Assembly: GCF_018977255.1 (NCBI RefSeq)
Contig: NW_024705237.1
Location: 1-60,097, forward strand
DNA: 60,097 nt
Source of the DNA: Callorhinchus milii
Lineage: Eukaryota
Reading direction: 5' to 3'
Under the pieces are notes generated by a model. The model was not told the DNA's origin and did no database searches. It saw only the letters and a program-made list of their open reading frames with translations. A program made the translations under genes and the position numbers. This document shows positions 12,650-59,767 of this stretch, piece after piece. Numbering within the stretch: the first letter of the stretch is position 1; each line of letters starts with the position of its first letter.

Positions 12650-13163
12650 ATACTGTACACATGATGCATGTATTAAAGCATTTTATAAATAAAAATTACT
12701 TTGAATGACAATGACATAAAAATATAAAGAAGTTATGTACTCACTAGTGTAACTAACCGGACGCTCTCCTACCTCCGCACATCGTATAACCTTATTTTTT
12801 ACATCCATACTGATGCCTTTCCTTTGTTTAGCCACATTACCAGAACTATCACTTGCAGGCCTTTTTCCCCAGACATTGTGGGTCAAAATTGCAATCAGGA
12901 TGAAGCAACAAAACTGTTACCAAAGGTCAAATAACCAAACACACGTTCCACGGGAAGCGTTCAAGGCTGGCGGGCAGAGGCGGGAGCGCTGGTTGGCTCA
13001 GCACCACTGAGCGTGCGCTTCTCTTTCACTGATTGAGCGAGCGGCTCGGAGAAGGCAGGGAGTGTTGCATGCCGCGTGTTCTCGCGCAGGAATTTTGAAT
13101 CGTTCAGGAATTTTCCTCCAGGACAGAGCCTCGTAAGGAAATGGTGTTATAAGAGGCAGCCTG
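12650..13163 (-). mobile_element. Tigger/pogo-like DNA transposon fragment (5' end plus transposase N-terminus)
   Basis: ORF 12683-12886 (KRPASDSSGNVAKQRKGISMDVKNKVIRCAEVGE) resembles the CENP-B-type HTH start of Tigger transposases. Terminus CAGGCTGCCTCTTATAAC at 13163. Confidence 0.6.
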
Positions 13164-13349
13164 TCCATACGATAAAAATGTTTTTTTTATCATAATGGTA
13201 CTATGTAAATGTTTTCATCCTAATCATACTGCTGTTGGTGTCGTGAAATACGTGTGTTAATTTTCCTGTCATTTTACTCTAAACTTGAGATAAAACTATG
13301 TGAGCCCCTGTGCACGTGCCACTTTTCTGTGACCATGCCAGTGAGATGG

Positions 13350-13740: not shown

Positions 13741-14034
13741 ATGGAAACGTCCTCACGCTCAAGTTGTACCCGAGGCAAAGCGACCTCCAGCTATGGCGCC
13801 ATCTTTTCGCAGAAGCTGTCGCTGAGGCTGCTGCTGCTGTTGCTGCCACCGCTGCTGCTGCTGCTGAATGTGGCCGTGGCACAGCGCGAGAGCGCAGGCC
13901 GCGCGTCCGTCCTCTCGATGTTGCGGTGCAAGCAGGTGGACGTCGCCAAGAACCTCTCCTCCGGATACGGGTGCTTCTGCCACGCGAGATTCCGCCACGC
14001 AGAGCCCCAGGACGAATTGGACTTGTGCTGCATG
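13741..14034 (+). CDS. Secreted PLA2-like repeat protein, coding exon A (signal peptide and N-terminal half of the PLA2 domain)
   Basis: Polypyrimidine/CAG acceptor directly before 13741. Leu-rich signal peptide (LRLLLLLLPPLLLLLNVAVA). sPLA2 motif MLRC..YGCFC..P.DELDLCC. Phase-0 donor ATG|GTGAGG at 14034/14035. Confidence 0.85.
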
Positions 14035-14597
14035 GTGAGGCTTGGCTGGGGGTAATTCGTAGAGTGAGTGAGAGAGGCACCGATGCTGCGTTGGGGCGAT
14101 GGATAAAGGCCTCCCCAAACCGGATTTGCGATTGTCTCTCACAAAAACACTCATGATATAGATTTATGTATTATATGATTTTTCATAGAATTAGGACCCA
14201 TATCTAAAAAATCCTTACCCGATAAACATCTGGTAGATCACCAGCATTGGTCTAAGCCAGCGTGACTTGTGGTGATACACTGTACGTTGAGACCAGTCCA
14301 GAGTTTGCTTGTGTTCAACCCATGCTGGTTAAATTACGCACTCACAGAATGCCGTGTAGATAATGGGATGTGTTGAAAATTTTTATATTCATGTGGAGGG
14401 AGCGATATGTCAAGGAGGCATATTATCTTCTTATTTATTTCATCCATAAGTGGATTGACAAAGAGCTGTGAGAAAGAAACGAAGTTTCCTTGTTTCAGTT
14501 CATTTAGTTAATCCAGGTTCTCACCAATTTCATACTAAAACATCTGCCTGTCTGCCCACATGTTCCTTGGTCCATTCGTTCATCCCCGTGGCTAAAG

Positions 14598-14945
14598 ATG
14601 GCCCACTGCTGTGCCCGCGCCGCAATCCTCGACTACTGCCAGTCGGAGAGTGGCCTGCAAACGCTCGAGGCCAAACTCAAGGAGCAGCCCTCCTGCAAGA
14701 CACATCGGCCTGCGGCATCACGCAAGACCGACGAGCGTTCGGAGGCCACGGTGACCCGAGATGCCGTGGTAGAGGTGCTGGAGGCCGTGACAGAGGAGTT
14801 GAAGGAGATGACTGTGAAGGAAAAGCAAAGAGTGGAGCGGGAGGCCAACACGACGTGTGAGCGGGTGCTGTACGAGTGCGAGCGGGCGTTGTACATGTGC
14901 GCCAGCGATGCACCTGTGCGGCCTGATTTGGTCGGGCTCCCCCAG
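14598..14945 (+). CDS. Secreted PLA2-like repeat protein, coding exon B (C-terminal half of the PLA2 domain)
   Basis: AAG| acceptor in phase 0. Reads MAHCC..DYC..PSC..TCERVLYECERALYMC, matching sPLA2 C91-x6-C98-x6-C105 spacing. GC3-rich. Donor CAG|GTGAGT at 14945/14946, phase 0. Confidence 0.85.
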
Positions 14946-14987
14946 GTGAGTGCAGGTTGCTTCGAGATATTAACTACCTCGTGGGGT

Positions 14988-15255
14988 GCCACGGTGGCGA
15001 GATATTAACTACCTCGCCTGGTATTCAGGAGGTCGTGGGTTTGATCCCGACCCTGACGCCTGTATATTTGGAGTTTTCATGTTCTCTCCTTGGTTGTGTG
15101 GATTTTTCTTCGGGTCCTCCGGTTTTTCCCTCCTGATTTACATATTTGGCTGCTATAAATTTCCACATAAGCCACTTCATTGAGCTGTCATTTGTGGCCA
15201 AGTCGCTTCTAAAAATGAGCTATATAGCTCAGTGGGCCTTACCTGGGAAAATAAA
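14988..15255 (+). mobile_element. V-SINE-like SINE (family A)
   Basis: tRNA-like head with B box GGTTTGATCCC, V-domain-like core GGAGTTTTCATGTTCTCTCC..GGGTCCTCCGGTTT, A-rich tail. Confidence 0.85.
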
Positions 15256-16368
15256 CATTGTTATGTTTATAGTTTAATAGTATTTTTTTTATTCACACAC
15301 TGAGTATGGATTGCAAATTAAATGGGGTTTTTGGATTGGCACGTGATCTTTAAAAAAATACTTAAAACGAATTCTAGCTCCACATCGGGTGTTTACATGA
15401 ACAGGCACAATTTAATCAAAAATATTTTATTGTCTATATTCAACACAGGCCTAAAGCCCCATAATGCAAAGCAGCCAGCAACAAAACATGAATGATAAAT
15501 ACAACACATAGTATCGCCCCAATGCTCATTCGAGCAAGAAATCACCGACCGACTTTTTGGAATAGAGCAAGTCTATAAGAACTTGGGAAAATAAACAATG
15601 GGAGTTCCAAAATCAGAAACTAAGGGCACAGCAGATAAGATGAGATGTATAGACTTTATTGAACAACTTTGTAGAAACTCGGTGAAAGAGATGATAGAAA
15701 ATAACTCCTCAGTCGAACAGGTGAGAACAGGAGAATGTTAAATCTCCTGCAGTGTAGTTGTTGGACACAGTAGGGATACCAGGAAATTGTCATCTTGATA
15801 GGAAGGGCATCAATGTGTGAATTTCCTGGGCACAATGATTGGTCGTGCCCATTAAAGAGTGATAAAGAAGTAAGACAGCAACTGCAGTGAATCAATGTGT
15901 GCAGGAGGACCATTTAACTGAACTGCTCTGTTAAATTGTACAAGCAGAATTTACAGTATTCTGACCAATTCAAAACAGTGCTTATCATAGGATCTGCACA
16001 TGTCGCATGTACATCACGAGATGTCCCACACAAGTTTGAGGTTCACTTCATCATTTATTTTCAAGTTATAGTAAGCGGTGTATCATTGTGGCACTTTAGT
16101 GACGTCGCGAGACCTTTTTACAATTCAAGTTGAGGGAGCTGGATTAATTCTGGTATGGTAGGACTATAACGGATGGAGATGACATGCAGAGACCTTCATC
16201 CTGCAGTGGCTATACAATGATTGATGATGATTAATCGTATTTTATAGCCCTTAGACACAAATGAATGCATGAAAAATGAGTGTAAGCTTCTATCTTAATG
16301 AATTATAACATACCTAATGTTTGCCAACCCTGACACTCTCCCTTGTCGATACTCCCGCCGGCCTCTAG

Positions 16369-19300
16369 GATGAGGTCTGCAGGGCCAATATCGACCGGCC
16401 AGTGTGCTCGCTGGAGCCAGCACCGACCAACCAATCTACAGCCATACCTACCACCAGACCTGTTACTGGACTCACAAAACAAATTCCCAGTTCTACAGCC
16501 AGACCTACAACCAGTTCTATTACTAGACTCACAACAACACCTACCACCAGTACTACAGCCAGACCTACCAGCCGATCTTTTTCCTGGCTTACAACCAGCT
16601 ATTCGACCAGTTCTATAGCCAGATCTTCGAACAGATCTTCTGACAAATCGACAGACAGGTTCACTGAACATTTACTCAATCTGATTACTGGAAGCGAAGA
16701 GACCTCCAGAGAAATGGTGACAGGAAATGTACACTCAGCACAAAACCATGTTTGGCAACCATCCCATCTCAGAAGCGGTGATGCACACTCACACATACAA
16801 CACCTGGACCCCATTCTCAGGGTTGATAGTGATCTTACACCGAGACAATACCTGCAGCACATTCTGAGGGTTGACAAAGTACACCCACTCAGACATCATC
16901 CATGGCCCAATCTCGCTCTTGGCAGCACACATGCACACCGACAACATAGCCTCACCTGTGACCGAGCACACCCACAGACACGACAGAGTGACAATACACC
17001 CCAAGAGAGACAGCACAGTCTCAGAAACAGCGTATTGCACTTTCTGAAGCAACACCGTAGATACGCTGATTCGAACCTATACAAACAACACCGACCCATT
17101 CATGGCATTGCACATAAACGCATACAACTCTTTGACAGTACATACCCACACAGACAACACCGTGTCAAGAGTGACTATACAGACCCAGAGATACAGCACA
17201 TTCCCACAGGCAACATAATGCGCTTTCTGGGCCAACGTCCTTTTAGAATTGACGATTCACAACCATACGGACGACACCCTCCCAGAGGTGGCACTACACA
17301 CCCACGTAGACACAGTGTCGAGGGTGACAATACACAGCCAGAGAGACAGCACATTCTCAAAGAAAGCATAATGCGCTTTCTTAACCAACGCCCTTTTAGA
17401 ATTGACGATTCAGAGCGATACGGACAACACCCTCCCAGAGGTGCAGCTACAAAACCACGTGGACAATACAGTTTTGCTGATAGCATCATCAATGGACCCA
17501 CATTTGCTGACGAGAAGAATGTGGGAGATATCATCAATGAACCAACGTTCACTGACGAGTACAATGCAAGAGACACCTTTAATCGACCCACATTCGCTGA
17601 CGAGAACAATGCGGAAGACATCAATGGACCCGACAGTACACACAAACACAGACAACTCCTTGACAGTACATACTCACACAGACAACACCGTGTCAAGAGT
17701 GACTATACACACCCAGAGAGACAGCACATTCTCACAGGCAAAACAATGCGCTTTCTGGGCCAACATCCTTTTAGAATTGACAATTCACAACCATACGGAC
17801 GACATCATCCCAGAGGTCCCAATAGACACCCACACGGACATTACAGTTTAGGTGATGGCACCATCAAAGGACCCATGTTCACTGAAGAGTACAATGCAAG
17901 AGACACCACCAATGGACCCACGTTCAATGACGAGAATGATGCGGGAGACACCATCAATAGACCCACATTTCTGACGAGAATGATGCGGAAGACATCATCA
18001 ATGGACCCGACAGTACACTCAAACACAAACAACTCCTTGAGAGTACATACTCACACAGACAGCACCGTGTCAAGAGTGACAATATAGAACCAGAGCGACA
18101 ACACATTCTCACAGGCAACATGATGCACTTTCTGGGCCAGCACCCTTTTAGAATTGACGATTCACAACTCTACAGACGACACCCTCCCAGAGGTGACAAT
18201 ACACACCCACTCAGACAATATAGTTATGGTGATGGCACCATCAATGGACCCACGTTCACTGACAAGAAGGCGGGAGACACCATGGATGAACTCACATTTG
18301 CTGACGAGAACAATTTAGAAGAAAGCATGGATGGACCCAGATTTACTTATGAGAACAATGCGGAATATACCATGCATAGACCCACATTCACTGACAAGAA
18401 TACGGGAGACACTGTCAATGGACCTAAATTCGCCGAAGAGAACAATGCGGGAGACAGCATGGATGAACCCACATTAACTTATGAGAACAATGTGAGAGAC
18501 ATCATGCATAGGCCCACATTCGTTGATGAGAACAATTCGGGAGATACCATCAATGGATCCACATTCGCTGAAGAGAACAATGCGGGCGACAGCATGGATG
18601 GACCCACATTCACTAACGAGAACAATGCGGAAGACATCATCAATGGACCCGACAGTACACGCAAACACAAACAACTCCTTGACAGTACATACTCACACAG
18701 ACAACACCGTGTCAAGAGTAACAATACAGATCCAGAGCGACAACACATTCTCACAGGCAACATGATGCACTTTCTGGGCCAGCGCCCTTTTAGAATTGAC
18801 GACTCACAACTATACAGACCACACCCTCCCAGAGGTGACAATACACACCCACTCGGACAATACAGTTTTGGTGATGGCACGCCCACATTCACTGACAAGA
18901 ATGCGGGACACACCATGGATGAACCCACATTTGCTGACGGGAACAATTTAGAAGACAGCATGGATGGACCCAGATTGACTTATGAGGACAATGCTGGAGA
19001 TACCATGAATGGACCCACATTCACTGACAAGAATACGGGAAACACTGTCAATGGACCTAAATTCGCTGAAGAGACCTATGCGGGAGACAGCATGGATGGA
19101 TCCACGTTCACTGACAAGAACAATACGGGAGACACCATCAATGGATCCACATTAACTACTCAGAACAATGCGGGAGACACCATGGATGGTCCCACGTTTA
19201 CTGACGAGTACAATACGGGAGACACTGTCATTGAACCCACATTCACTGACGAAAACAATGCGGGAGACACCATGGATGAAACCACATTTGATGACGAGAA

Positions 19301-20399
19301 CAATGCGGGAGACACCATGGATGAAGCCACATTTGATGACGAGAACAATGCAGGAGACAGGATGGATGGACCCACGTTCACGGATCAGAACAATGCGGGA
19401 GACACCATGGATCGATCCACATTTGCTGAAGAGAACAATGCAGGAGACACCATCAATCGACCCACGTTCACGGATGAGAACAATGCGGAAGACACCATGG
19501 ATCTATCCACATTTGCTGAAGAAAACAATGCGGGCAACAACATGGAAGGACCCACGTTCACTTATGAGAACAATGCAAGAGACACCGTGAATGGACCCGC
19601 ATTCGCTGATGACAATCCGGGAGACACCATGGATGAACCCACATTTGATGACGAAAACAATGCTGGAGACATCATAAATAGATCCACGTTTACTGAAAAG
19701 AAAAATGCAGGAGAAACCATTCACGAACCCACATTTGCTGACGAGAACAATTTAGAAGACAGGATGCATGAACCCAGATTGACTTATGAGAACAATGCGG
19801 AAGATACCATGAATGGACCCACATTCACTGACAAGAATACGGGAAACACTGTCAATGGATCCACATTCACTAACAAGAACAATGCGGGAGACACCATTAA
19901 TGGTCCCACGTTTACTGACGAGTACAATGCAGGAGACACCATCAATGAACCCACGTTCACTGACAAGAACAATACGGGAGACACTGTCATTGAACCCACA
20001 TTCACTGACGAAAACAATGCGGGATACACCATGGATGGACCCACATTAACTGATGAGACCAATGCGGGAGACACCATGGACGGACCCACATTTACTGATG
20101 AGACCAATGCAGGAGACACCATCAATGGACCCACATTCACTTACGAGAACACTGCAGGAGACACCATGGACGGACCCACATTCACTGACGAGAACAATGT
20201 GGTAGAATCCATCGATGGACCCACGTTCACTGATGAGACCAATTCGAAAGACACCATGGGTCAATCCAAATTCGCTGAAGAGAACAATGTGGGAGACAGC
20301 ATGGATGGACCCACGTTCATTGACGAGAGCAATGCGAGACACACCTTTAATGGACCCACATTTACTGATTATAACAATGCGGGAGACACCATCAGTTGA
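16369..20399 (+). CDS. Secreted PLA2-like repeat protein, terminal exon C (last two Cys, Ser/Thr stalk, His/Arg repeats, acidic repeats); one frameshift at 17970/17971
   Basis: TAG| acceptor at 16368 is in frame with ORF 16402-18087 and gives DEVCRANIDRPVC. ORFs 16402-18087 and 18120-20399 join if one base missing from a repeat unit is restored (TTT-CTGAC versus TTTGCTGAC/TTCGCTGAC in sister units). Confidence 0.8.
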
Positions 20400-20640: not shown

Positions 20641-20646
20641 AATAAA
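20641..20646 (+). terminator. Polyadenylation signal of the PLA2-like gene
   Basis: AATAAA ~240 nt after the stop codon, followed by a T-rich stretch. Confidence 0.55.
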
Positions 20647-21330
20647 ATAATAATAATAAATCACGTCTATTTTTATTATATATATACTTTACATCCACTT
20701 ACTTGGTCTCATTCACTTACCATTGTTCACTCAATCCCAGCTAATGCTAGCCTCCCCTTTTCTCCACTTATTCTCTACACATTTTTTCATTTATTTTTCT
20801 TCACCTCTTAACCATCATCCAGCCGTCCTCATCTATCTTCAGGCTGCAATGTCCACAATGGAGAGGGGCTATGAGATAGGGTTCAAGAGGCACATTGATT
20901 TTTAGCAGGCCAAGATTTTGTTGCAGAGCTTCACGGTTCGACTCCAGCGGCTGCCCTGGTTACTACTGAAGCGCCATCTGTTTTCACAGTGGACGTTAAA
21001 GTTCCCGTGACATATTTTGCAATAGTAGACCATTGTGTGTGCCAGAGTCATGGTCCAAATTTTGCCAAATAAAAAAAAATACCCGCAAATGACTCAATTG
21101 GTATTTATCAAAACGAGCATCGCCCCCGAGAAACCCTGGCAGGAGCCTCCTGCAAAGAGTCATGAGATGGGGGAGGCTTTCCTGGGCAACCAAGCACACT
21201 CATACAGATAAAGAGCTTGGAAACTCCTTTAGAAGAGAAGATAAATAATTCGTGAGTTTAAAGAAAATGGTATTTTATGCATGAGTGATATCTATATTAA
21301 TATGGGAATCAAGGACAAACCTTTTTCATT

Positions 21331-22712: not shown

Positions 22713-23950
22713 ACGAGACAACCATCAAATAAATATTGAACGTACATTAAATACTGCTCGTTAGAAATGCATATAATATGGTTAATAAGTGTACAATCCT
22801 ATACAACTAAAAAAACAGGAATGGCAACATCTGAAAACCACTGTGCAATGAGATGACAAACACACATGATCAAATATCGTCGGGTGGAGTAAAGGGCTAA
22901 TGTGGGGCACAAGGCCTCTTTGTCCTGCTGCTCGCGTGTGGTCCGTCTGTTGAGCAGCAGACACGAGCAGCAGCAGCAGCAGGGCCTGTGCAGGAGGGCG
23001 CCAGTCCACACCTCCACCTCATCGTGGCTCAAGACGCTACTTCGGTTCGCACCACGATTGAAAGAGGTCTCTCACCCCCCCCCCCCCCACATTCTACCCT
23101 CAACATTCAGTCATTGGTCGTGTGCAAAACCACTTTAAAAACGAATTGTAAAAGAGAGATGGTAAATCCTGAAGATGCAAAAGCTGTCAACATGCATACG
23201 CATATAAATGTTTAAAAAATATATTTTAAAAGTAATGTTTTAAAAACTGCAGGACCCTCTGCGCATTCACAGATCCGAGGCGAATCATTCCCCAGCGTTG
23301 GGGGCTGTTGGAACCCTCTGCCACACCACGCATCCTGCCTCTCCGTTCGAGTGGCACACTCGGTAGACCTGCACCCTGTGACCCCCCCCACCCAGCCCCA
23401 CGTGTGATGCATGAAACAAGGGATTTAGAAAATCAAGAGCATGAATTGCCTCCTTCTGTCAAGCTGGGGTGCAATTCAATAATAAAACAGGCTTGTGATT
23501 GTATTTGCAGAAGTCTTCAGCAAATATATTTAAGACCACCGCTCTTAGCATGAATAAAGAATGTGGTTAACATTTTTAGTATTCTCTACCCCTGGGCTTC
23601 AATGGCTCGTGTTTTGAAAAGTGCTTGAACATGGCGTGGTATTCTACTGGGGATGTTAACCATCGGATTGGCTCGTGATTGGAAACTGCACGATCCATTT
23701 CATGCGAGTTACCCGGTTTGGGTTCTGAAGCTGCCAAAGTGGAGACTCTGAGAACTACATATACACCACTTAAAGGTACACTGTGTTATATGAGGCACAC
23801 ACACACACGCCGTACATAATACCCTGAAGGTTAACCACAGTTAACAGATACAATTTTTCTGCAGAGTAATTACATTTCACATTTCAGTCTTTGCTACTTA
23901 ACATGCTGCACTTAAAATGTATATAATTAACTATACTATAACAAAAAAAT

Positions 23951-27220: not shown

Positions 27221-27360
27221 AAAGCTTTCGTGACTGCAGGTATTCATATTCTTGGTTCTTTCGGTAAAGTCACGTAGAAGGGAAATAATAAAATAATATA
27301 AATATAAAACAATTTATATTATTTCCCTTCTACGTGACTTTACCGAAAGAACCAAGAATA
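27221..27360. mobile_element. Penelope-like family A fold-back insertion
   Basis: Perfect 44-bp inverted arms 27247-27290 / 27317-27360. The left arm carries an extra ~26-nt tail (AAGCTTTCGTGACTGCAGG). Confidence 0.75.
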
Positions 27361-27394
27361 AGATTTAAAGTACTGTTATTTGATTTTCTAAAAT

Positions 27395-41892: not shown

Positions 41893-41961
41893 CCTCTTCT
41901 CTTTGTGCTGACGCCGAGCGGCTCTGAGTCATCTCGCCGACTCGCCGAACCCCGCGCCGAG

Positions 41962-43256
41962 ATGTTCCTCGCCACGCCGCGCGCGCTGCCCGCACCCGGC
42001 GCGACCCCGACACTCCTCAAGTCGGCCATGAAGCGCTGCCCCAGCTCGAGCGAGCGCTCTCCCGTGGAGAAGTCCAAGCGCCGCGTGCTCTTGACCTCCA
42101 GCAGACCGAGGTTCGCTACCTGCCCAGCGAGCCGCACGCCGAGATGGCGGCGCAGGCGGTGGCGCAGGGGGTGACGGCGGCGGTGGCGCGGCCCGACAAG
42201 GCGGAACTCGCCGCCTTCATCCAGCACCAGTGCGTCGCCCTCATGCACAGCCGCGAGAGGCTGCAGGAGCAGCGGGAGCGGAGACTCGTACTCAGCCCGA
42301 GCCTCGGCGGAGTTGCGCCGAGCGGGAGGGCGCCAGGGGGAGCGGTGGTGCCCGGGGAGCACGAGCCCGTCGCGGCGCGCGGAGGAGTCGCCGCCGCTCC
42401 GAGTTTCGTCCTCCCCTCCACGCACCTGCTCATGCTCAAGCAACAGCAGCAGCAGCAACAGCAGCATCAGCTCAACGGGCAGGAGCGCGTCGCCAAGGTC
42501 GGCTTCGAGAAAGCGGCGGCCACGCACGAAGAGCCGCTGCTGACGGACATCGCTGCGTCGAGACGGGCGGGTGGTGCCAGGGCAGGCGCAGGCGGAATCG
42601 CCCGCACGCCCACTTCTCCAGCTGCTCGCTGCCCGGGCACGGCCACCACCACCACCAGCAGCAGCAGCACGCCCAGCGCGGCGCCCTGCTGGGAGACTCG
42701 CCACAGACAGTCTGCTGGTGGACAGGGAGCGCAGGGAGAGATTCCACAATCTCCGCGCCAAAAGCGGCGGCGGCGGTGGTGGCCGCGTGGCGCCGGCTCT
42801 GCAGGACTTGCCCTCCATCCTCAAGACGAACGGACCCCCGCTGGAGCTGAACGTGTCCAGGCGCGGGCCGCGAGGGGGCGAGAGAATAGGAGCGAGCCTC
42901 CGCGCCCGGTGAGCTGCGGAGGATACACCAACGCCACCCTCCTATCCGCCCGCGCCATCGCGGCCACCAAGGGAGGCACGGCCGCCTCGGTCTCTCCGGG
43001 CCCCCAGGCTGCGCCACCCAGCGCGGCCTCCGCTCGCACCGCCTTCGTGAGCGCGCACCGAGGCCCCGGCTCGAAGGCCCCGTTCGCTGGACCCGCCACC
43101 CCAGCAGCGAGTGCGCAGGGCTGGCAGGCGCCGCGCAGCGGCGGGCTGCTGCTGCAGGGTTCGCAGGGCTACCTCACCCTGTCGCGGATGCCCACCAAGG
43201 GCCCCGCTGCGACTCGGAACCTTGACGGTCTGGCGGCCCAATGGGCCCGCAGGTGA
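41962..43256 (+). CDS. Intronless gene of unknown family, ~432 aa after correcting four single-base deletions; low complexity (polyQ, polyH, polyG), candidate PP1-binding motifs
   Basis: CpG island. The GC3-rich frame steps through ORFs 41758 -> 42144 -> 42230 -> 42571 -> 42144, always by -1, at ~42092, ~42552, ~42692 and ~42880. TATA upstream, TATTTAT and ATTAAA downstream. Confidence 0.7.
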
Positions 43257-46418: not shown

Positions 46419-49400
46419 CTCCGCCACGCTGCGTGGTGGGTGTAGCGTTGTAGTAGGCCACGCTGCGTGGTGGGTTTAGCGTTGTAGTGGGCCACATTCT
46501 GCCACGCTGCGTGGTGGGTTTAGCGTTGTAGTGGGCCACGCTGCGTGGTGGGTTTAGCGACGTAGTGGGCCACACTGTGTGGTGGGTTTAGCGACGTAGT
46601 GGGACACGCTGTGTGGTGGGTTTAGCGACGTAGTGGGACACGCTGTGTGGTGGGTTTAGCGACGTAGTGGGACACGCTGTGTGGTGGGTTTAGCGACGTA
46701 GTGGGCCACACTGTGTGGTGGGTTTAGCGACGTAGTGGGCCACACTGTGTGGTGGGTTTAGCGACGTAGTGGGACACGCTGTGTGGTGGGTTTAGCGACG
46801 TAGTGGGACACGCTGTGTGGTGGGTTTAGCGACGTAGTGGGACACGCTGTGTGGTGGGTTTAGCGACGTAGTGGGACACACCTGTGTGGTGGGTTTAGCG
46901 ACGTAGTGGGACACGCTGCGTGGTGGGTTTAGCGACGTAGTGGGACACGCTGTGTGGTGGGTTTAGCGACGTAGTGGGCCACACTGTGTGGTGGGTTTAG
47001 CGACGTAGTGGGACACACTGTGTGGTGGGTTTAGCGACGTAGTGGGACACGCTGTGTGGTGGGTTTAGCGACGTAGTGGGACACGCTGTTGTGGTGGGTT
47101 TAGCGACGTAGTGGGACACGCTGTGTGGTGGGTTTAGCGACGTAGTGGGACACGCTGTGTGGTGGGTTTAGCGTTGTGGGTGGGGCCACGCTGGTGTGGT
47201 GGGGTTTAGCATTGTAGTGGGCCACGCTGTGTGGTGGTTTAGCGTGTAGTGGGCCACGCTGTGTGGTGGTTTAGCGACGTAGTGGGCCACACTGTGTGGT
47301 GGGTTTAGCGACGTAGTGGGCCACGCTGCGTGGTGGGTTTAGCGACGTAGTGGGCCACACTGTGTGGTGGGTTTAGCGACGTAGTGGGCCACACTGTGTG
47401 GTGGGTTAGCGTTGTAGTGGGCCACACTGTGTGGTGGGTTTAGCGTTGTAATGGGCACGCTGCGTGGTGGGTTTAGCGACGTAATGGGCCACACTGTGTG
47501 GTGGGTTTAGCGACGTAGTGGGCCACGCTGCGTGGTGGGTTTAGCGACGTAATGGGCCACACTGTGTGGTGGGTTTAGCGACGTAATGGGCCACACTGTG
47601 TGGTGGGTTTAGCGACGTAGTGGGCCACGCTGCGTGGTGGGTTTAGCGACGTAGTGGGACACGCTGTGTGGTGGGTTTAGCGACGTAGTGGGCCACATTC
47701 TGCCACGCTGTGTGGTGGGTTTAGCGACGTAGTGGGCCACGCTGTGTGGTGGGTTTAGCGACGTAGTGGGCCACACTCCGCCAGGCTGTGTGGTGGGTTT
47801 AGCGACGTAGTGGGCCACACTGTGTGGTGGGTTTAGCGACGTAGTGGGCCACACTGTGTGGTGGGTTTAGCGACGTAGTGGGCCACACTGTGTGGTGGGT
47901 TTAGCGACGTAGTGGGACACGCTGTGTGGTGGGTTTAGCGACGTAGTGGGACATGCTGTGTGGTGGGTTTAGCGTTGTGGTGGGCCACGCTGTGTGGTGG
48001 GTTTAGCGACGTAGTGGGACACGCTGTGTGGTGGGTTTAGCGTTGTAGTGGGCCACGCTGTGTGGTGGGTTTAGCGACGTAGTGGGACACGCTGTGTGGT
48101 GGGTTTAACGACGTAGTGGGACACGCTGTGTGGTGGGTTTAGCGACGTAGTGGGACACGCTGTGTGGTGGGTTTAGCGTTGTAGTGGGCCACGCTGCGTG
48201 GTGGGTTTAGCGACGTAGTGGGACACGCTGTGTGGTGGGTTTAGCGACGTAGTGGGACACGCTGTGTGGTGGGTTTAGCGTTGTGGTGGGCCACGCTGTG
48301 TGGTGGGTTTAGCGACGTAGTGGGACACACTGTGTGGTGGGTTTAGCGACGTAGTGGGCCACACTGTGTGGTGGGTTTAGCGACGTAGTGGGACACGCTG
48401 TGTGGTGGGTTTAGCGACGTAGTGGGACACGCTGTGTGGTGGGTTTAGCGTTGTGGTGGGCCACGCTGTGTGGTGGGTTTAGCGACGTAGTGGGACACGC
48501 TGTGTGGTGGGTTTAGCGTTGTAGTGGGCCACGCTGTGTGGTGGGTTTAGCGACGTAGTGGGACACGCTGTGTGGTGGGTTTAGCGACGTAGTGGGACAC
48601 GCTGTGTGGTGGGTTTAGCGACGTAGTGGGACACGCTGTGTGGTGGGTTTAGCGTTGTAGTGGGCCACGCTGCGTGGTGGGTTTAGCGACGTAGTGGGAC
48701 ACGCTGTGTGGTGGGTTTAGCGACGTAGTGGGACACGCTGTGTGGTGGGTTTAGCGTTGTGGTGGGCCACGCTGTGTGGTGGGTTTAGCGACGTAGTGGG
48801 ACACACTGTGTGGTGGGTTTAGCGTTGTAGTGGGCCACGCTGTGTGGTGGGTTTAGCGACGTAGTGGGCCACGCTGTGTGGTGGGTTTAGCGACGTAGTG
48901 GGACACGCTGTGTGGTGGGTTTAGCGTTGTAGTGGGCCACACTCCACTACGCTGTGTGGTGGGTTTAGCGACGTAGTGGGACACGCTGTGTGGTGGGTTT
49001 AGCGTTGTAGTGGGCCACACTCCACTACGCTGTGTGGTGGGTTTAGCGACGTAGTGGGCCACACTCCACCACGCTGTGTGGTTGGTTTAGCGACGTAGTG
49101 GGACACGCTGTGTGGTGGGTTTAGCGTTGTGGTGGGCCACACTGTGTGGTGGGTTTAGCGACGTAGTGGGACACGCTGTGTGGTGGGTTTAGCGACGTAG
49201 TGGGCCACACTCCACTACGCTGTGTGATGGGGTTAGCGACGTAGTGGGCCACACCCACACGCTGTGTGGGGGTTTAGCGACGTAGTGGGCCACACTCCAC
49301 CACGCTGTGTGATGGGTTTAGCGACGTAGTGGGCCACACTCCGCCGCGCTGTGTGGTGGGGTTAGCGACGTAGTGGGCCACACTCCACCACGCTGTGTGA

Positions 49401-49955
49401 TGGGTTTAGCGACATAGTGGGCCACACTCCACTACGCTATGTGGTGGGTTTAGCGACGTAGTGGGCCACACTCCACCACGCTGTGTGATGGGTTTAGCAA
49501 CGTAGTGGGCCACACTCCGCCGCGCTGTGTGGTGGGGTTAGCGACGTAGTGGGCCACACTCCACCACGCTGTGTGATGGGTTTAGCGACGTAGTGGGCCA
49601 CACTCCACTACGCTGTGTGGTGGGTTTAGCAACGTAGTGGGCCACACTCCACCACGCTGTGTGGTGGGTTTAGCAACGTAGTGGGCCACACTCCACTACG
49701 CTGTGTGATGGGTTTAGCGACGTAGTGGGCCACACTCCACCACGCTGTGTGATGGGTTTAGCGACGTAGTGGGCCACACTCTACTACGCTGTGTGGTGGG
49801 TTTAGCAACGTAGTGGGCCACACTCCACCACGCTGTGTGATGGGTTTAGCAACGTAGTGGGCCACACTCCGCCACGCTGTGTGGTGGGTTTAGCGACGTA
49901 GTGGGCCACACTCCGCCACGCTGTGTGATGGGTTTAGCGATGCAATGGGCCACAC
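46419..49955. repeat. Tandem satellite, 34-bp unit with a 44-bp variant (~95-100 units)
   Basis: Unit GCTGTGTGGTGGGTTTAGCGACGTAGTGGG(A/C)CAC; the variant adds ACACTCCACC-like 10 bp. Confidence 0.97.
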
Positions 49956-51092: not shown

Positions 51093-51272
51093 TTTGAAGC
51101 TTTCGTGACTGCAGGGATTCATATTCTTGGTTCTTTCGGTAAAGTCACGTAGAAGGGAAATAATGAAATAAAAGAAATTTTTTTCTTATTTAATTATTTC
51201 CCTTCAAAAAAAGATATACTTATTATTATATTATTTTTATTCTACGTGACTTTACCGAAAGAACCAAGAATA
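51093..51272. mobile_element. Penelope-like family A fold-back insertion
   Basis: Inverted arms TATTCTTGGTTCTTTCGGTAAAGTCACGTAGAA and its reverse complement; flanking direct repeat AGTGTGCACACA (51073-51084, 51272-51283). Confidence 0.8.
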
Positions 51273-54583: not shown

Positions 54584-56080
54584 AGTTTAATTAGTTTAAT
54601 GTCAACATAGCAAAGAGGCCTGAAAACGCGCCACGCGCCATTGCAGTCAACGTTACTACAGCGCACGCCGCACTGCGCGTGTGAAGCTCACCCCAACAGC
54701 CGGGAATTATTAGTATTCGTACGAATCATCATTTAATGTGCAACGTGCACAGTTTTCGTTCACTCTCAGACAGCGAGAATGAGTCAGGGGCACGTAAAAA
54801 TACAGACAAGCAGGAATTCATCCAGAAATGGCGCCGCCAGTTATTTGTTCAAGTTCTATGGTCTGGCTAACTCTGTGCGTGAGTGTTTAATATACAGGTG
54901 GCAGGAAACCAGAACACCTGGCGAAAAACCACGGGTGCGATCGGATACCACTCAATATCATGAAATGTCACTGGGAGGCACATTCGCATGAGTAGTGTAG
55001 TTAATAATAATTGTTTATATCTACACACACAGTGCCGATTAAACACGACTTAAAAATGTACTTGGCAGGACCTCGGTTTGTTTAATGCGAGCGAGGCACT
55101 CCCTTGCCTGCTGTGTCACCACTAGTGCATTTTTTGTAGCGCTATCATAGAAATATTGGCGGTACTGACTAGAACACGTGCTAAGACGTCCATTAAATTG
55201 CCTTTCAACTATCCCAAGACCGAGAATTGGAATAGGCGACTCAAAGCCTTTGCCGTTTGCAGCACCAACGTTTTGGAACGAACCTTGTCTCCTCCCTTAA
55301 CAGCGTCAATCTTTCTTCAAAAATATTCCATAGTTGTCAACTTATACGGTTCACCCGTATTATTGTACAGGTAAAATTTAGTTTTCAGGTCCACACGGCA
55401 TACAGCCGTTTCAATACGGGCAAAACACTTTTTTTTCGCCCATTTGTTTGTGTTTATTCCTTGTGATGGGACTTTGCAAGATGAACGTTGAGATTGATAA
55501 GGGCACGGGGTGACCAAGTAGGTCTGAATTTGTCTGTAATAAGGTAGGCACTGGTATGATGAATCAGAATATTAGTTATGATACAGCCACATTTGCCAAA
55601 GTTTGATCCTTAACCGTTTATCGATAGTTGAATGTTAATGTGCAAGTTTATTGATGGACTATGTGGTGTTGTCTTTCTGTGGTCTGGGACTGTTGTTGTT
55701 TTGCTGCCTTTCCCAATCTTGCATTCACATTGAAAAATCGGCAGGAACTTTATATATTTTGCAATTTGTGCTTACCGTATATACTTTATAAATTTAAAAA
55801 AATACATTTTTCGTGACTTGCTTACCTTTCATATACTTTGCAATCCTATCAGTTTTTGTATCGTTTGTCGTTGAAACTTCAGGACCACGTGCCCCCTACT
55901 GACATCTCTGAAGAAAGAGCTTCACAGCTCATCGATTCCTCCTCCTGAAGTCGAAATAAAGATTTGAAGCTTTAGGACTGCAAGGATTCATATTCTTAGG
56001 TTTTTGTCGGTAAAGTCACGTAGGTAAAACATTTTAATTAATAAAAGTAAAATAAAAATAAAATAAAAAATAAAAATCAC

Positions 56081-56115
56081 GACGTTTCAGACGCAACACA
56101 AGCTTCCGTCTTCAG
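56081..56115 (-). ncRNA. Minimal hammerhead core (degenerate)
   Basis: CTGAAGA-CGGAAGCTTGTGTTGCGTCT-GAAAC-GTC on the minus strand. Confidence 0.5.
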
Positions 56116-56138
56116 TTGGCACCGTCACAGCACGCTTG

Positions 56139-56173
56139 CTGAAGACGGAAGCTTGTGTTGCCTCCGAAACGTC
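56139..56173 (+). ncRNA. Minimal hammerhead core
   Basis: CTGAAGA-CGGAAGCTTGTGTTGCCTCC-GAAAC-GTC; stem I not evident. Confidence 0.55.
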
Positions 56174-56735
56174 GTGATTTTTTTTTTACTTTAATTAAAA
56201 AATTTGTTTTACCTACGTGACTTTACCGAAAAAACCTAAGAATATCGAAATAAAGACACAGATCCTGAATGCACGCCCACGCGCTAAAGCCTAACCGCGA
56301 CGCATTGCAGTCGTCTCTGTTGTGAAACGTCATTCATAATTCAAAGCTCTGTCAACCCACTGCTGGATTAACACTCGCCCCCCACGTCGTTTTGGTTTGT
56401 GGAGGTGAGGGTTCGGGCAGGGGTCGACAACCCGCGGCTCCAGAAGCTGCATGCGACTCTTTAAGGACCTGCTTTGTGACGTTGTTCATTAAGAACCGTC
56501 TCGTATTCACCCACAGTGCATTGTGGCTCTTGGTCTATTGCGGGGTTTTTTTTGGTTGGTGTTTCGGCCTTTCATACTATACACCCTCCCCAAAGGCGGC
56601 CAGCGACAGGGTGATCAATCCTACGCTTGCGTCCCATTCCCAATTAGTCATAGGAGTTGCCTTGTTGTTGGTAGCCAACATCCCATGGGACTATGCAATA
56701 ATCCATAAAACTAAGCCATTAAAAAAATATTAGAT

Positions 56736-58574: not shown

Positions 58575-59007
58575 ATCATCCATAATACAGTTGTTTTGGG
58601 TTAGATTGTGTAAATATATAAATGTGTCGTTAAACCCGCCACCACTTGACAGCCAACTAGTAAGGGTTGTCACGTAAACAGGAACATGCCAATTCGTTAC
58701 TAGTGCAGCACACCGGTGTGTTGGAGAGCAAATCAACAACATTTACAATCTGAGTACGACGTTTCGTTCCTCTATTTAAGGAATGAAACAGGAGGATTTA
58801 TCCACAAATCTGGCTGTCGCCTGATGACGCTAGTTGTAATTACTGGCGAAACGTCGTACTCACATTGTAAATGTTGTGGCTTTGCTCTCCAACACACCGG
58901 TTAGTGCTGTACTAGTAACGAATTGGCCACGTTCTGTTTACGTGACAAACCTTACTAATTCGCTGTGTCGGGTGGTGGCGGGTTTACCGACACATTTATA
59001 CATTTAC
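58575..59007. mobile_element. Penelope-like family B fold-back insertion
   Basis: Imperfect inverted arms of ~155 bp (~58610-58766 / ~58847-59007); the left arm has a ~30-nt unpaired tail. Confidence 0.75.
58821..58855 (+). ncRNA. Minimal hammerhead ribozyme (family B)
   Basis: CTGATGA-C-GCTAGT-tgtaatt-ACTGGC-GAAAC-GTC: intact core and 6-bp stem II with one G.U pair; stem I weak. Confidence 0.65.
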
Positions 59008-59767
59008 GCGATATAAACAAACAAAAAACCCCTGCATGATGAGTGTTGTGTTAGTAAGGCACGTGTCCCATGCGTATCAGTGCATTTTGACACCACGCCG
59101 TAGCGCTGGTGTTCTCCGCGCACGCACAATCGAAATTTCTCCTGCACGGTATCCGTGCCGCAGGGTGGGCGGTTCAAGAACCACTGCTGCAGAGCCATCG
59201 TCAGTGTGACTTGCATGCTCACGCCGCCGCGGGTACGGGCGGAGCACGGTGCTTGCAGTTGAAGTGATGATGCTGCCACTGCTGTGCGGTTTTGGTGAGC
59301 AGCCAAAGAAGATTTCAAAGAGGGCCCATTGGTGCTATTGCCTGGGGAGAGCGGGCGTCGCGTGAAGCAAGCGCGCTGAAACCCCACCACCTGCCGTCTC
59401 GACTGCCTCACAATCTTTATTTAGACTCTGAGGAATCCGATGAGCCATGAAGCTCTTTGTCATAGATGTCTCTGGCACGGGTCCCAGTCGATGCTGCATT
59501 CTGCCTGCGTCAAGAGCCATCTCAAGGAGACCTCCCTGCAGAGACATCTCGTTGAGGCGTAGATGTATCGGTATTTATTAAAAGAGTAACCTGTGGTGCT
59601 ATATGCCCCTTCATGGGATACTACTGTGACTAATCTACGGCATCTTATCAGTCAGCTGCTCAATGACGGCCTCCCCACCTCATCATACTTCACCACGCTT
59701 ATCGATGCAGGTTGGCCCTTATTTGTCACCGATGTTAACCGTACCCTGGAATCTGACTCAGGTCATA

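Follow-up and report, generated by a model that had tools for sequence, protein, structure and literature searches.

A predicted secreted lamprey protein with a catalytically dead phospholipase A2 head: a candidate extracellular matrix scaffold

Introduction

The locus described here raises the question of what becomes of a secreted phospholipase A2 (sPLA2) domain once its catalytic residues have been replaced, and what a protein built on such a domain might do. In active sPLA2s, His48, Asp49, Tyr52 and Asp99 furnish the catalytic dyad and the Ca2+ ligand, and Asp49 binds Ca2+ together with carbonyls of the Ca loop (PMC9862071). The DXCCXXHD site is part of the group definition, and group X enzymes combine six conserved disulfides with both extra bonds, eight in total (PMC3111613). 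A dead sPLA2 on an intact cysteine frame is already known from otoconin-90 (Oc90/Otoc1) and Xenopus otoconin-22 (Oc22), of the ear-stone matrix of jawed vertebrates, and from PLA2G12B and venom homologues. The window, meaning the whole stretch of 60,097 nucleotides analysed, holds a lamprey gene in which the remodelling goes further.

Results

Gene architecture

A gene for a predicted secreted protein of ~1,550 aa was reconstructed from three exons, with one frame break in exon C (Table 1). Secretion is very probable given the signal-like N-terminus, cleavage being inferred after A-V-A, and hydropathy revealed no membrane-spanning stretch in the predicted protein other than the signal. Exon A matches Pfam PF00068 with E=2.5e-4, under the curated cut-off. 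The junction between exons A and B, DLCCM/MAHCCA, and exon B itself are the same in 9/9 public models of the window's locus group. The exon C frame is backed by the paralog models P0013 and P0011; 0/9 models of the locus group read it in frame. A contig from run X17 has 334 letters against 333 window bases (17680-18012) and is otherwise identical, so the break probably arose in assembly or belongs to one allele. The tail is complete only if the break is an error.

Table 1. Features of the reconstructed gene (window coordinates)
Feature	Position	Strand	Description
Exon A	13741..14034	+	ATG directly after AG acceptor; strong GTGAGG donor; agrees with public models; signal-like N-terminus, helix 1, Ca loop, beginning of helix 2
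Predicted signal peptide	13741..13881	+	Residues 1-47; Leu-rich 19-mer, mean hydropathy 2.35
Remodelled Ca loop	13966..14004	+	YGCFC then HARFRHAE, not Gly-rich; C27 at 13972, C29 at 13978
Exon B	14598..14945	+	M47, A48 (14601), H49 (14604), C50, C51, A52 (14613), C61, C77-or-84 (14694), insert, C91, Y96, C98, E99 (14880), C105
Charged beta-wing insert, 51 residues	14697..14849	+	Fastest-evolving part of mature domain
Exon C head	16369..16407	+	C126 (16378) and C-terminal Cys (16405)
Ser/Thr-rich linker	16429..16668	+	50% S+T, pI 11.8, mucin-like; similar in paralog P0013
Six His/Arg/Gln-rich modules	16900..18880	+	Core motif at 17005, 17188, 17341, 17716, 18093, 18735
Acidic 15-residue (45-nt) repeats	17484..20399	+	47 pattern matches; stop 20397-20399
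One-base frame break, exon C as assembled	17962..17975	+	1/18 listed repeat copies one base short
Two AATAAA signals	20641..20660	+	~240 nt past stop

The last exon spans ~4 kb and encodes a repeat tail of ~1,320 aa, in which the His/Arg/Gln modules, the last two carrying RGD, are partly interleaved with the acidic repeats. The signal-like N-terminus, the insert and this tail add to the original description. The acidic frame (17961-20399) has a pI of 4.1, 20% D+E, 6% K+R, no Cys and eight N-glycosylation sequons. Paralog P0013 has the same head and a single partial His/Arg/Gln module, in a basic Thr/His tail lacking acidic repeats; thus the acidity is not family-wide. Downstream exons of four L. 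reissneri models (~22958-23065; 23274 onward) were left out of the gene model.

Elsewhere in the window, tblastn detected no second PLA2 domain, the neighbouring ORF at 41928-43256 gave no Pfam or atlas match, and Rfam returned no matches. P. marinus carries a broken partial copy, P0012, and the two-domain model P0006 resembles two tandem copies fused.

Family membership

Single-domain models match PF00068 with E-values of 2e-6 to 3e-7, just under the curated cut-off, and homology to the group I/II/X domain extends across the length of the domain. Consistent with this assignment, the atlas neighbours are PF00068 clusters (scores <0.9), and Pfam scans report PF00068 and no model of group XII. 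Among PDB entries, Lys49 proteins, crotoxin A, MitTx-beta and taipoxin beta match weakly (E 0.025-0.5). With a cut-off of E<=0.001, the 1.84 billion representatives yield three matches, all lamprey; at E<=10, none of 730, 8000 and 8000 scored candidates is a relative outside lampreys, both searches being too weak to show absence. Oc90 was matched neither in the set of 1.84 billion at E<=0.001 nor in 8000 longer candidates at E<=10, so orthology to Oc90 is unsupported; these searches likewise retrieved no vertebrate sPLA2 sequence. The searches made turned up no lamprey otoconin, and no paper containing any of six gene or protein identifiers.

Catalytic residues and the Ca loop

A profile built exclusively from 13 intact animal sPLA2s aligns with the spliced domain (exons A and B plus the exon C head) as a single stretch, scoring 27.7 bits, whereas none of 500 shuffles exceeds 5.1. 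Its register bears out the original prediction of H48A, D49H, Y52A, D99E and replaced Ca-loop glycines, and additionally places Tyr at 96. The substitutions are common to both paralogs and to all 12 full-domain lamprey models retrieved (four species), and the HARFRHAE 8-mer occurs in 11/13 lamprey proteins, the other two differing by A>T. An alignment restoring the His/Asp dyad was sought without success: C-x-x-H-D-x-C is absent from all 13 lamprey proteins, and intron A contains no coding match to it with <=2 mismatches. In place of DXCCXXHD and its dyad the domain has A48, H49 and E99, and in place of the XCGXGG loop it has FCHARFRHAE. Judged from these residues, catalysis is almost certainly absent.

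The cysteine frame

The predicted protein has 14 Cys after the signal, which align with group I/II/X positions and allow at most seven disulfides. Cys at 11 and the C-terminal Cys, at the position of the C50 partner, are both present, as predicted. The 84-96 bond, one of the six conserved sPLA2 disulfides, is lost; C96 is Tyr here and Asp or Asn in the paralog, whereas the C96-x-C98 spacing is kept by the 13 intact enzymes, L068 (with an extra Cys) excepted. The head therefore has neither the six conserved bonds of conventional sPLA2s nor the eight of group X, and the description of a complete group X-like network was overstated.

The identity of the core cysteine at 14694 bears on the 11-77 bond. 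It lies 19 residues past C61; six of the intact enzymes show a comparable C61/C77/C84 run, with C77 12-17 and C84 15-20 residues past C61, and in the bovine enzyme the distances are 16 and 23. The residue may therefore be C77 or C84, and would be the partner of C11 by exclusion only. The 11-77 bond is to that extent ambiguous.

Predicted structure

AlphaFold models of paralog P0013 reached a mean pLDDT of 38.7 with a 7-sequence alignment and 47.0 with 20 sequences. In the better model, only two core helices of the sPLA2 fold (three helices plus a beta-wing) are confident (pLDDT 82-89); helix 1 and the Ca loop stand at 35-40, and C126/C133 below 50, so that the disulfide check proposed originally yields a partial core and no usable geometry. 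The second half of the insert is modelled as a helix; matches of this helix to Centromere protein Q and BRX_N were discounted as fortuitous similarity between helices. With these low-confidence models, Foldseek returned no match at E<=0.001 and VIA-align aligned the signal helix only (Z<=4.6), which has no bearing against a PLA2 fold; fold searches find no PLA2 because the models are poor.

Conservation and transcription

Between the window gene and its paralog, 14/14 Cys are kept against 66/107 other core residues (62%), and identity is 71/108 (66%) in the core against 16/50 (32%) in the insert (p=1.3e-4). The P. marinus ortholog likewise retains 103/108 core residues and 41/51 insert residues (p=0.006); its core is not significantly more conserved than the translated intron, 47/52 (p=0.30). 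Exons A and B are open in four lamprey species, with GC3 of 0.83 and 0.78. The replacement residues are common to the paralogs at 14/16 positions against 52/91 elsewhere (p=0.025, using a loop window picked post hoc), or 10/12 against 56/95 for a strict set (p=0.12); because these residues are common to both paralogs, constraint may extend past the fold.

In stranded RNA run X23, exon bins have depths of ~1-7 and four SINE-free intron bins 0-0.35; the gene is transcribed at a low level. Exon C reads occur in all three RNA runs compared, mostly 3-prime in two, a distribution not obviously expected of a gene confined to the ear. None of the gene's splice joints, B-C included, is among the 15 joints listed (200 more exist), because SINE reads swamp the listing.

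The excess of core over insert conservation argues for constraint over decay, and a constrained function is very likely on the protein comparisons. The proposal of selection on the fold thus stands at the protein level, where the cysteines, the core and transcription agree, and does not extend to the ortholog comparison with the translated intron.

Discussion

Taken in aggregate, these data are best explained, at a little under an even chance, by a lamprey pseudo-PLA2 of ~1,550 aa that serves as an Oc90-like extracellular matrix scaffold. The head would be a catalytically dead, disulfide-stapled sPLA2 fold, rigid and docking on matrix partners. The tail, probably disordered, would run from Ser/Thr-rich through His/Arg-rich to strongly acidic, and its polyanionic repeats would concentrate Ca2+ and shape or restrain mineral. 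By analogy, binding of cations or mineral by such a scaffold is somewhat favoured; a role specifically in the inner-ear statolith matrix is rather doubtful.

Oc90 retains more active-site residues than the lamprey protein, and the 84-96 bond. It is a secreted extracellular scaffold with inactive sPLA2-like domains and a very acidic composition (PMC3105080 and PMC8515026) and an organiser of matrix; a single domain of this kind occurs in Xenopus Oc22 (PMC3105080). The lamprey protein is alike in its predicted secretion, dead domain and acidity, the latter two by sequence only. It differs from Oc90 in having one sPLA2-like domain rather than two, and from Oc22, which has no long extension, in its insert and tail. 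Starmaker, OMM-64 and the acidic SCPP/SIBLING proteins share long acidic repeats acting on mineral; the lamprey tail has few S-x-E sites (1 in 812 aa). SIBLING proteins carry RGD; none of these acidic proteins is known to have a PLA2 domain.

Conventional group I/II/V/X enzymes, at 14-19 kDa, are far smaller than the lamprey protein. Intron positions in the mature part differ as well. The lamprey gene has the signal peptide and N-terminal half in one exon, whereas Pla2g2 genes split the signal peptide (10.1101/583344). PLA2G12B, a secreted sPLA2 homologue whose catalytic His is replaced (PMC3111613), resembles the lamprey head in that respect and differs by its group XII Cys pattern. Venom PLA2 homologues are likewise dead enzymes that keep the disulfide frame, but are ~120 aa long and tail-less, and nothing in these data points to a venom role.

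Several other functions would fit parts of the data. One possible though unlikely reading is a non-mineral gel or coat protein of skin or larval feeding mucus, egg coat, or notochord or cartilage matrix, in which the dead PLA2 would provide an anchor resistant to proteases and self-assembly would be driven by the basic and acidic blocks. The mucin-like linker in both paralogs, the NCBI name 'mucin-5AC-like' for the paralog, the alternating basic and acidic blocks and the paralog without acidic repeats are consistent with it; against it, ~500 residues have 22% D+E and 4% K+R, a composition that mineral-binding proteins show more typically than mucins do. The head could instead bind a ligand or partner in the manner of non-catalytic venom subunits or PLA2G12B, acting on a receptor, a lipid carrier or an active sPLA2 in a setting such as buccal secretion or innate immunity. 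On the former active-site face the paralogs do have the replacements in common (p=0.025, or p=0.12 for the strict set), and inactive homologues exist in the PDB lists and as PLA2G12B, but these precedents are small (~120-aa PDB chains) and lack a 1,300-aa tail. Moreover, L. planeri adults do not feed, yet the models from that species are as conserved as the rest, and the main text of one buccal-gland proteome paper names only Lp-PLA2 (PMC5964706); partner binding is thus quite improbable. A similarly low probability attaches to conversion of the old Ca2+ site into a transition-metal site of His30, His35, His49 and Glu37, which would serve structure, cross-linking or a new kind of catalysis. 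Both paralogs have His at two loop positions and at residue 49, whose Asp with the loop carbonyls holds Ca2+ in active enzymes (PMC9862071), but the clustering of these side chains comes from homologues only, the loop being modelled at pLDDT 35-40. Such a site would be compatible with the scaffold explanation.

The remaining readings deny the protein a new role. For a decaying sPLA2 duplicate, functionless today, one can cite the frame break, the low RNA depth, the ortholog-intron comparison (p=0.30) and the broken P0012; retention of every cysteine with 62% of the remaining core, the fact that exons A and B stay open in four species, and the GC3 values make it very improbable. Least credible of all is an active protein, whether because a mis-predicted splice hides a His-Asp exon or because the dyad has shifted to His49/Glu99. 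A His and an acidic residue do persist near the site, but intron A holds no His-Asp exon, all public models agree on one junction, and nothing remains of the Ca ligand Asp49, of Tyr52 or of the loop glycines; His49 sits at the Ca-ligand position because four Cys fix the helix register.

The distinctive feature is the extent of remodelling: the whole catalytic network, one core bond and a 51-aa insert, conserved in two lamprey paralogs, together with a repeat exon of 4 kb that is read in frame by none of the nine retrieved models of the locus group. The ear stones of cyclostomes are phosphatic (PMC6937729) and the searches made found no lamprey otoconin, which makes the gene a concrete, testable candidate. 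More speculatively, and by analogy, the protein might belong to the phosphatic ear-stone matrix of lampreys through an independent recruitment of the sPLA2 fold, joining in one chain an Oc90-like dead head, whose Ca site has been remade as a cluster of His residues, and an acidic RGD tail of the Starmaker/SIBLING kind. This proposal is unlikely as it stands; if true, jawless vertebrates would show calcium-phosphate mineralisation by a route unlike that of jawed vertebrates.

Loss of the catalytic residues

Scanning metagenome contigs for the canonical sPLA2 motif gave 121 loci, which served as the source of intact enzymes. Of 17 animal-type loci inspected, 13 were kept; those dropped were three intron-broken loci and one with a long insert. 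By eye, the translations of many motif matches (L004, L010, L013, L014, L033, L067 and others) suggest either C-terminal domains of bacterial Rhs proteins or small proteins of Bacillus type.

Built from the 13 enzymes alone, a profile matches the spliced lamprey domain over its full length with a score of 27.7 bits, as compared to a top score of 5.1 among 500 shuffles. In this register the substitutions are H48A, D49H, Y52A, D99E and C96Y, and HARFRHAE stands where the Gly-rich Ca loop is expected. In active sPLA2s, the His/Asp pair forms the dyad, and Ca2+ is held by the Asp next after the His together with loop carbonyls (PMC9862071). The catalytic losses originally predicted are thus borne out, and the profile does not restore the dyad. 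The same substitutions occur in all 12 full-domain lamprey models, and a search of intron A for a hidden exon with a His-Asp motif found none. Together, these observations make loss of catalysis in the window protein nearly certain; hidden phospholipase activity, which such an exon might have supplied, appears extremely improbable.

Gene structure and transcription

The dead domain is encoded by a spliced plus-strand gene whose whole product would be ~1,550 residues long. The original prediction, correct on the substitutions, missed three parts of it: the insert, the signal-like N-terminus and the ~4-kb tail exon. The N-terminus contains a Leu-rich 19-mer (mean hydropathy 2.35), with no second such span in the protein. 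Exon C encodes a Ser/Thr linker (50% S+T), six His/Arg/Gln modules and 47 matches to an acidic 15-mer; frame 17961-20399 has a pI of 4.1, 20% D+E, 6% K+R, two RGD motifs and no Cys. The frame is broken at ~17970, where one repeat copy among the 18 listed is short by a base. Across this point a contig of run X17 needs one gap to fit its 334 letters to 333 bases, and an assembly error or an allele is therefore the probable cause of the break.

Features of the window gene and of the surrounding sequence
Feature	Position	Strand	Remarks
Exon A	13741-14034	+	ATG behind acceptor; GTGAGG donor at end
Exon B	14598-14945	+	A/B and B/C junctions both phase 0
Charged insert	14697-14849	+	51 residues, in beta-wing
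Interspersed repeat	14983-15276		~290 bp, intron B; at least six further places in window
Exon C	from 16369	+	~4 kb; phase 0 junction with exon B
Stop codon	20397	+	AATAAA downstream at 20641 and 20655
Coding region	41928-43256	+	GC-rich, apparently single-exon, poly-Gln
G-rich satellite	46423-49955		34- and 44-bp units, ~3.5 kb, strong strand skew
MITE-like stretches	27244-27363, 51122-51272, 55990-56245, 58591-59024		self-complementary

The head of exon C is matched by the segment after the domain in P0013, a model of the lamprey paralog, which supports the B/C reading frame; later tail motifs are also common to both. RNA reads from three runs (X20, X21 and the stranded X23) were placed on the gene region. 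X23 depth is ~1-7 over exon bins versus 0-0.35 over SINE-free intron bins, and its first mates lie on the minus strand, which in most libraries denotes plus-strand RNA. X20 and X21 reads fall in exon C only, chiefly at the 3-prime end. The gene's own splice joints are absent among the 15 joints listed from these reads because SINE reads dominated. The interspersed repeat of intron B is abundant in the RNA reads, and one P. marinus model runs into it.

Just upstream, X23 has a depth of 2 on the opposite strand (12951-13267), a possible divergent or antisense transcript. Downstream, 22958-23065 and 23274-23514, beyond the region covered by the RNA read mapping, are taken as last exons by four Lethenteron reissneri models that skip exon C, with a weak donor. 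The coding region at 41928-43256 returned no Pfam or atlas match; an ATG near 41963 lies upstream in a different frame from its main one, suggesting a frame break near 42090.

Relatives in lampreys

The exon B search returned three clusters, in lampreys only, comprising nine models from L. reissneri, Lampetra planeri, L. fluviatilis and Petromyzon marinus, all named 'uncharacterized' or 'unnamed'. The A/B junction is used by 9/9, and the exon C frame giving the last two cysteines is read by 0/9. Against 1.84 billion representatives, phmmer gave three matches: the window gene, the paralog P0011 (which shares a cluster with P0013 and P0014) and the partial copy P0012. Vertebrate sPLA2 sequences did not come up in the searches. 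Six gene or protein identifiers are absent from the open full text searched. This is a real, under-annotated lamprey gene.

P0012, a P. marinus model, has a damaged exon A copy (C27 to R) fused to a sialyltransferase, and is probably a partial third copy adjoining an ST6GAL gene. Four L. reissneri loci (P0003, P0006, P0007, P0009) are nearly identical and hold five domain copies; three lie on contigs of equal size. These represent either recent duplication or assembly duplicates. The paralog insert (P0011/P0013/P0014) ends in R-E-K-R, a furin-type site, where the window gene has K-Q-R; R-Q-H-R occurs in four of the latter's tail modules (17152, 17680, 18057, 18699). Proteolytic processing at such sites is possible.

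Cysteines and fold

In conventional sPLA2s six disulfides are conserved and up to two are added; group X enzymes carry the full pair of additions (PMC3111613). The mature window domain has 14 cysteines, or seven bonds at most with 84-96 missing; the predicted complete group X-like network therefore fails, and group X identity is ruled out. In the proposed 11-77 bond, C11 is present, and the 'C77' may be C84. This ninth Cys (14694) lies 19 residues past C61. Of the 13 intact enzymes, six can be compared over this run; their C77 falls 12-17 residues past C61 and their C84 15-20, and the bovine enzyme has these two at 16 and 23. The ninth Cys may therefore descend from C84 and would then pair with C11 only by default, no other Cys being free.

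In the AlphaFold check of the disulfides, the better of the models, made for P0013 from 20 sequences, reaches high confidence in just two helices, 97-116 and 194-211 (pLDDT 82-89). Fold searches with the predicted models returned no PLA2; the predicted sPLA2 fold rests on sequence evidence.

Constraint and possible function

Between the window gene and P. marinus, identity is 103/108 in the core and 41/51 in the insert (p=0.006); against the paralog it is 71/108 and 16/50 (p=1.3e-4), with 14/14 Cys kept versus 66/107 other core residues. This argues against decay, which we consider very improbable. In favor of decay, 52 intron codons translated in a P. marinus read-through model agree at 47/52 positions, which is lower than in the core but not significantly so (p=0.30). 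Selection on fold, as first proposed, is supported by the paralog comparison, which carries the case for constraint, with gene conversion a possibility. Replacement residues are common to the paralogs at 14/16 positions versus 52/91 elsewhere (p=0.025) when the loop is extended post hoc to residue 37; stricter sets give 10/12 versus 56/95 (p=0.12) and 8/9 versus 58/98 (p=0.15). This hints that the former active-site face may have a new role, possibly as a His-based metal site.

With a rigid dead-enzyme head joined to a very acidic chain, the secreted protein would share the design of otoconin-90. The latter carries two inactive sPLA2-like domains; its predicted pI is 4.5, and it both binds otolin and organises the matrix of otoconia (PMC3105080, PMC8515026, PMC6531356). 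Xenopus Oc22 has one domain (PMC3105080). This likeness, together with the phosphatic ear stones of living cyclostomes (PMC6937729), leads us to favor, tentatively, an extracellular cation- or mineral-binding scaffold, of which the inner ear would be one candidate site, itself a doubtful one. Counting against such a scaffold, Oc90 is absent among the relatives retrieved, including by phmmer, and the paralog model has the same head with no acidic repeats. A mucus or coat protein is conceivable though rather unlikely. A ligand-type head is less probable again; one buccal proteome paper names Lp-PLA2 alone in its main text (PMC5964706).

Several identities were rejected: an active sPLA2, which the lost dyad and Ca-ligand residues would rule out; PLA2G12B; and two-domain Oc90, the window gene having one domain. 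Pla2g2 genes split the signal peptide across two exons (10.1101/583344), unlike exon A. The scaffold reading would place the window protein beside otoconin-90 in design. Its mature-region introns, which we take to differ from those of vertebrate group I/II/X and Oc90 genes, would favor independent recruitment.
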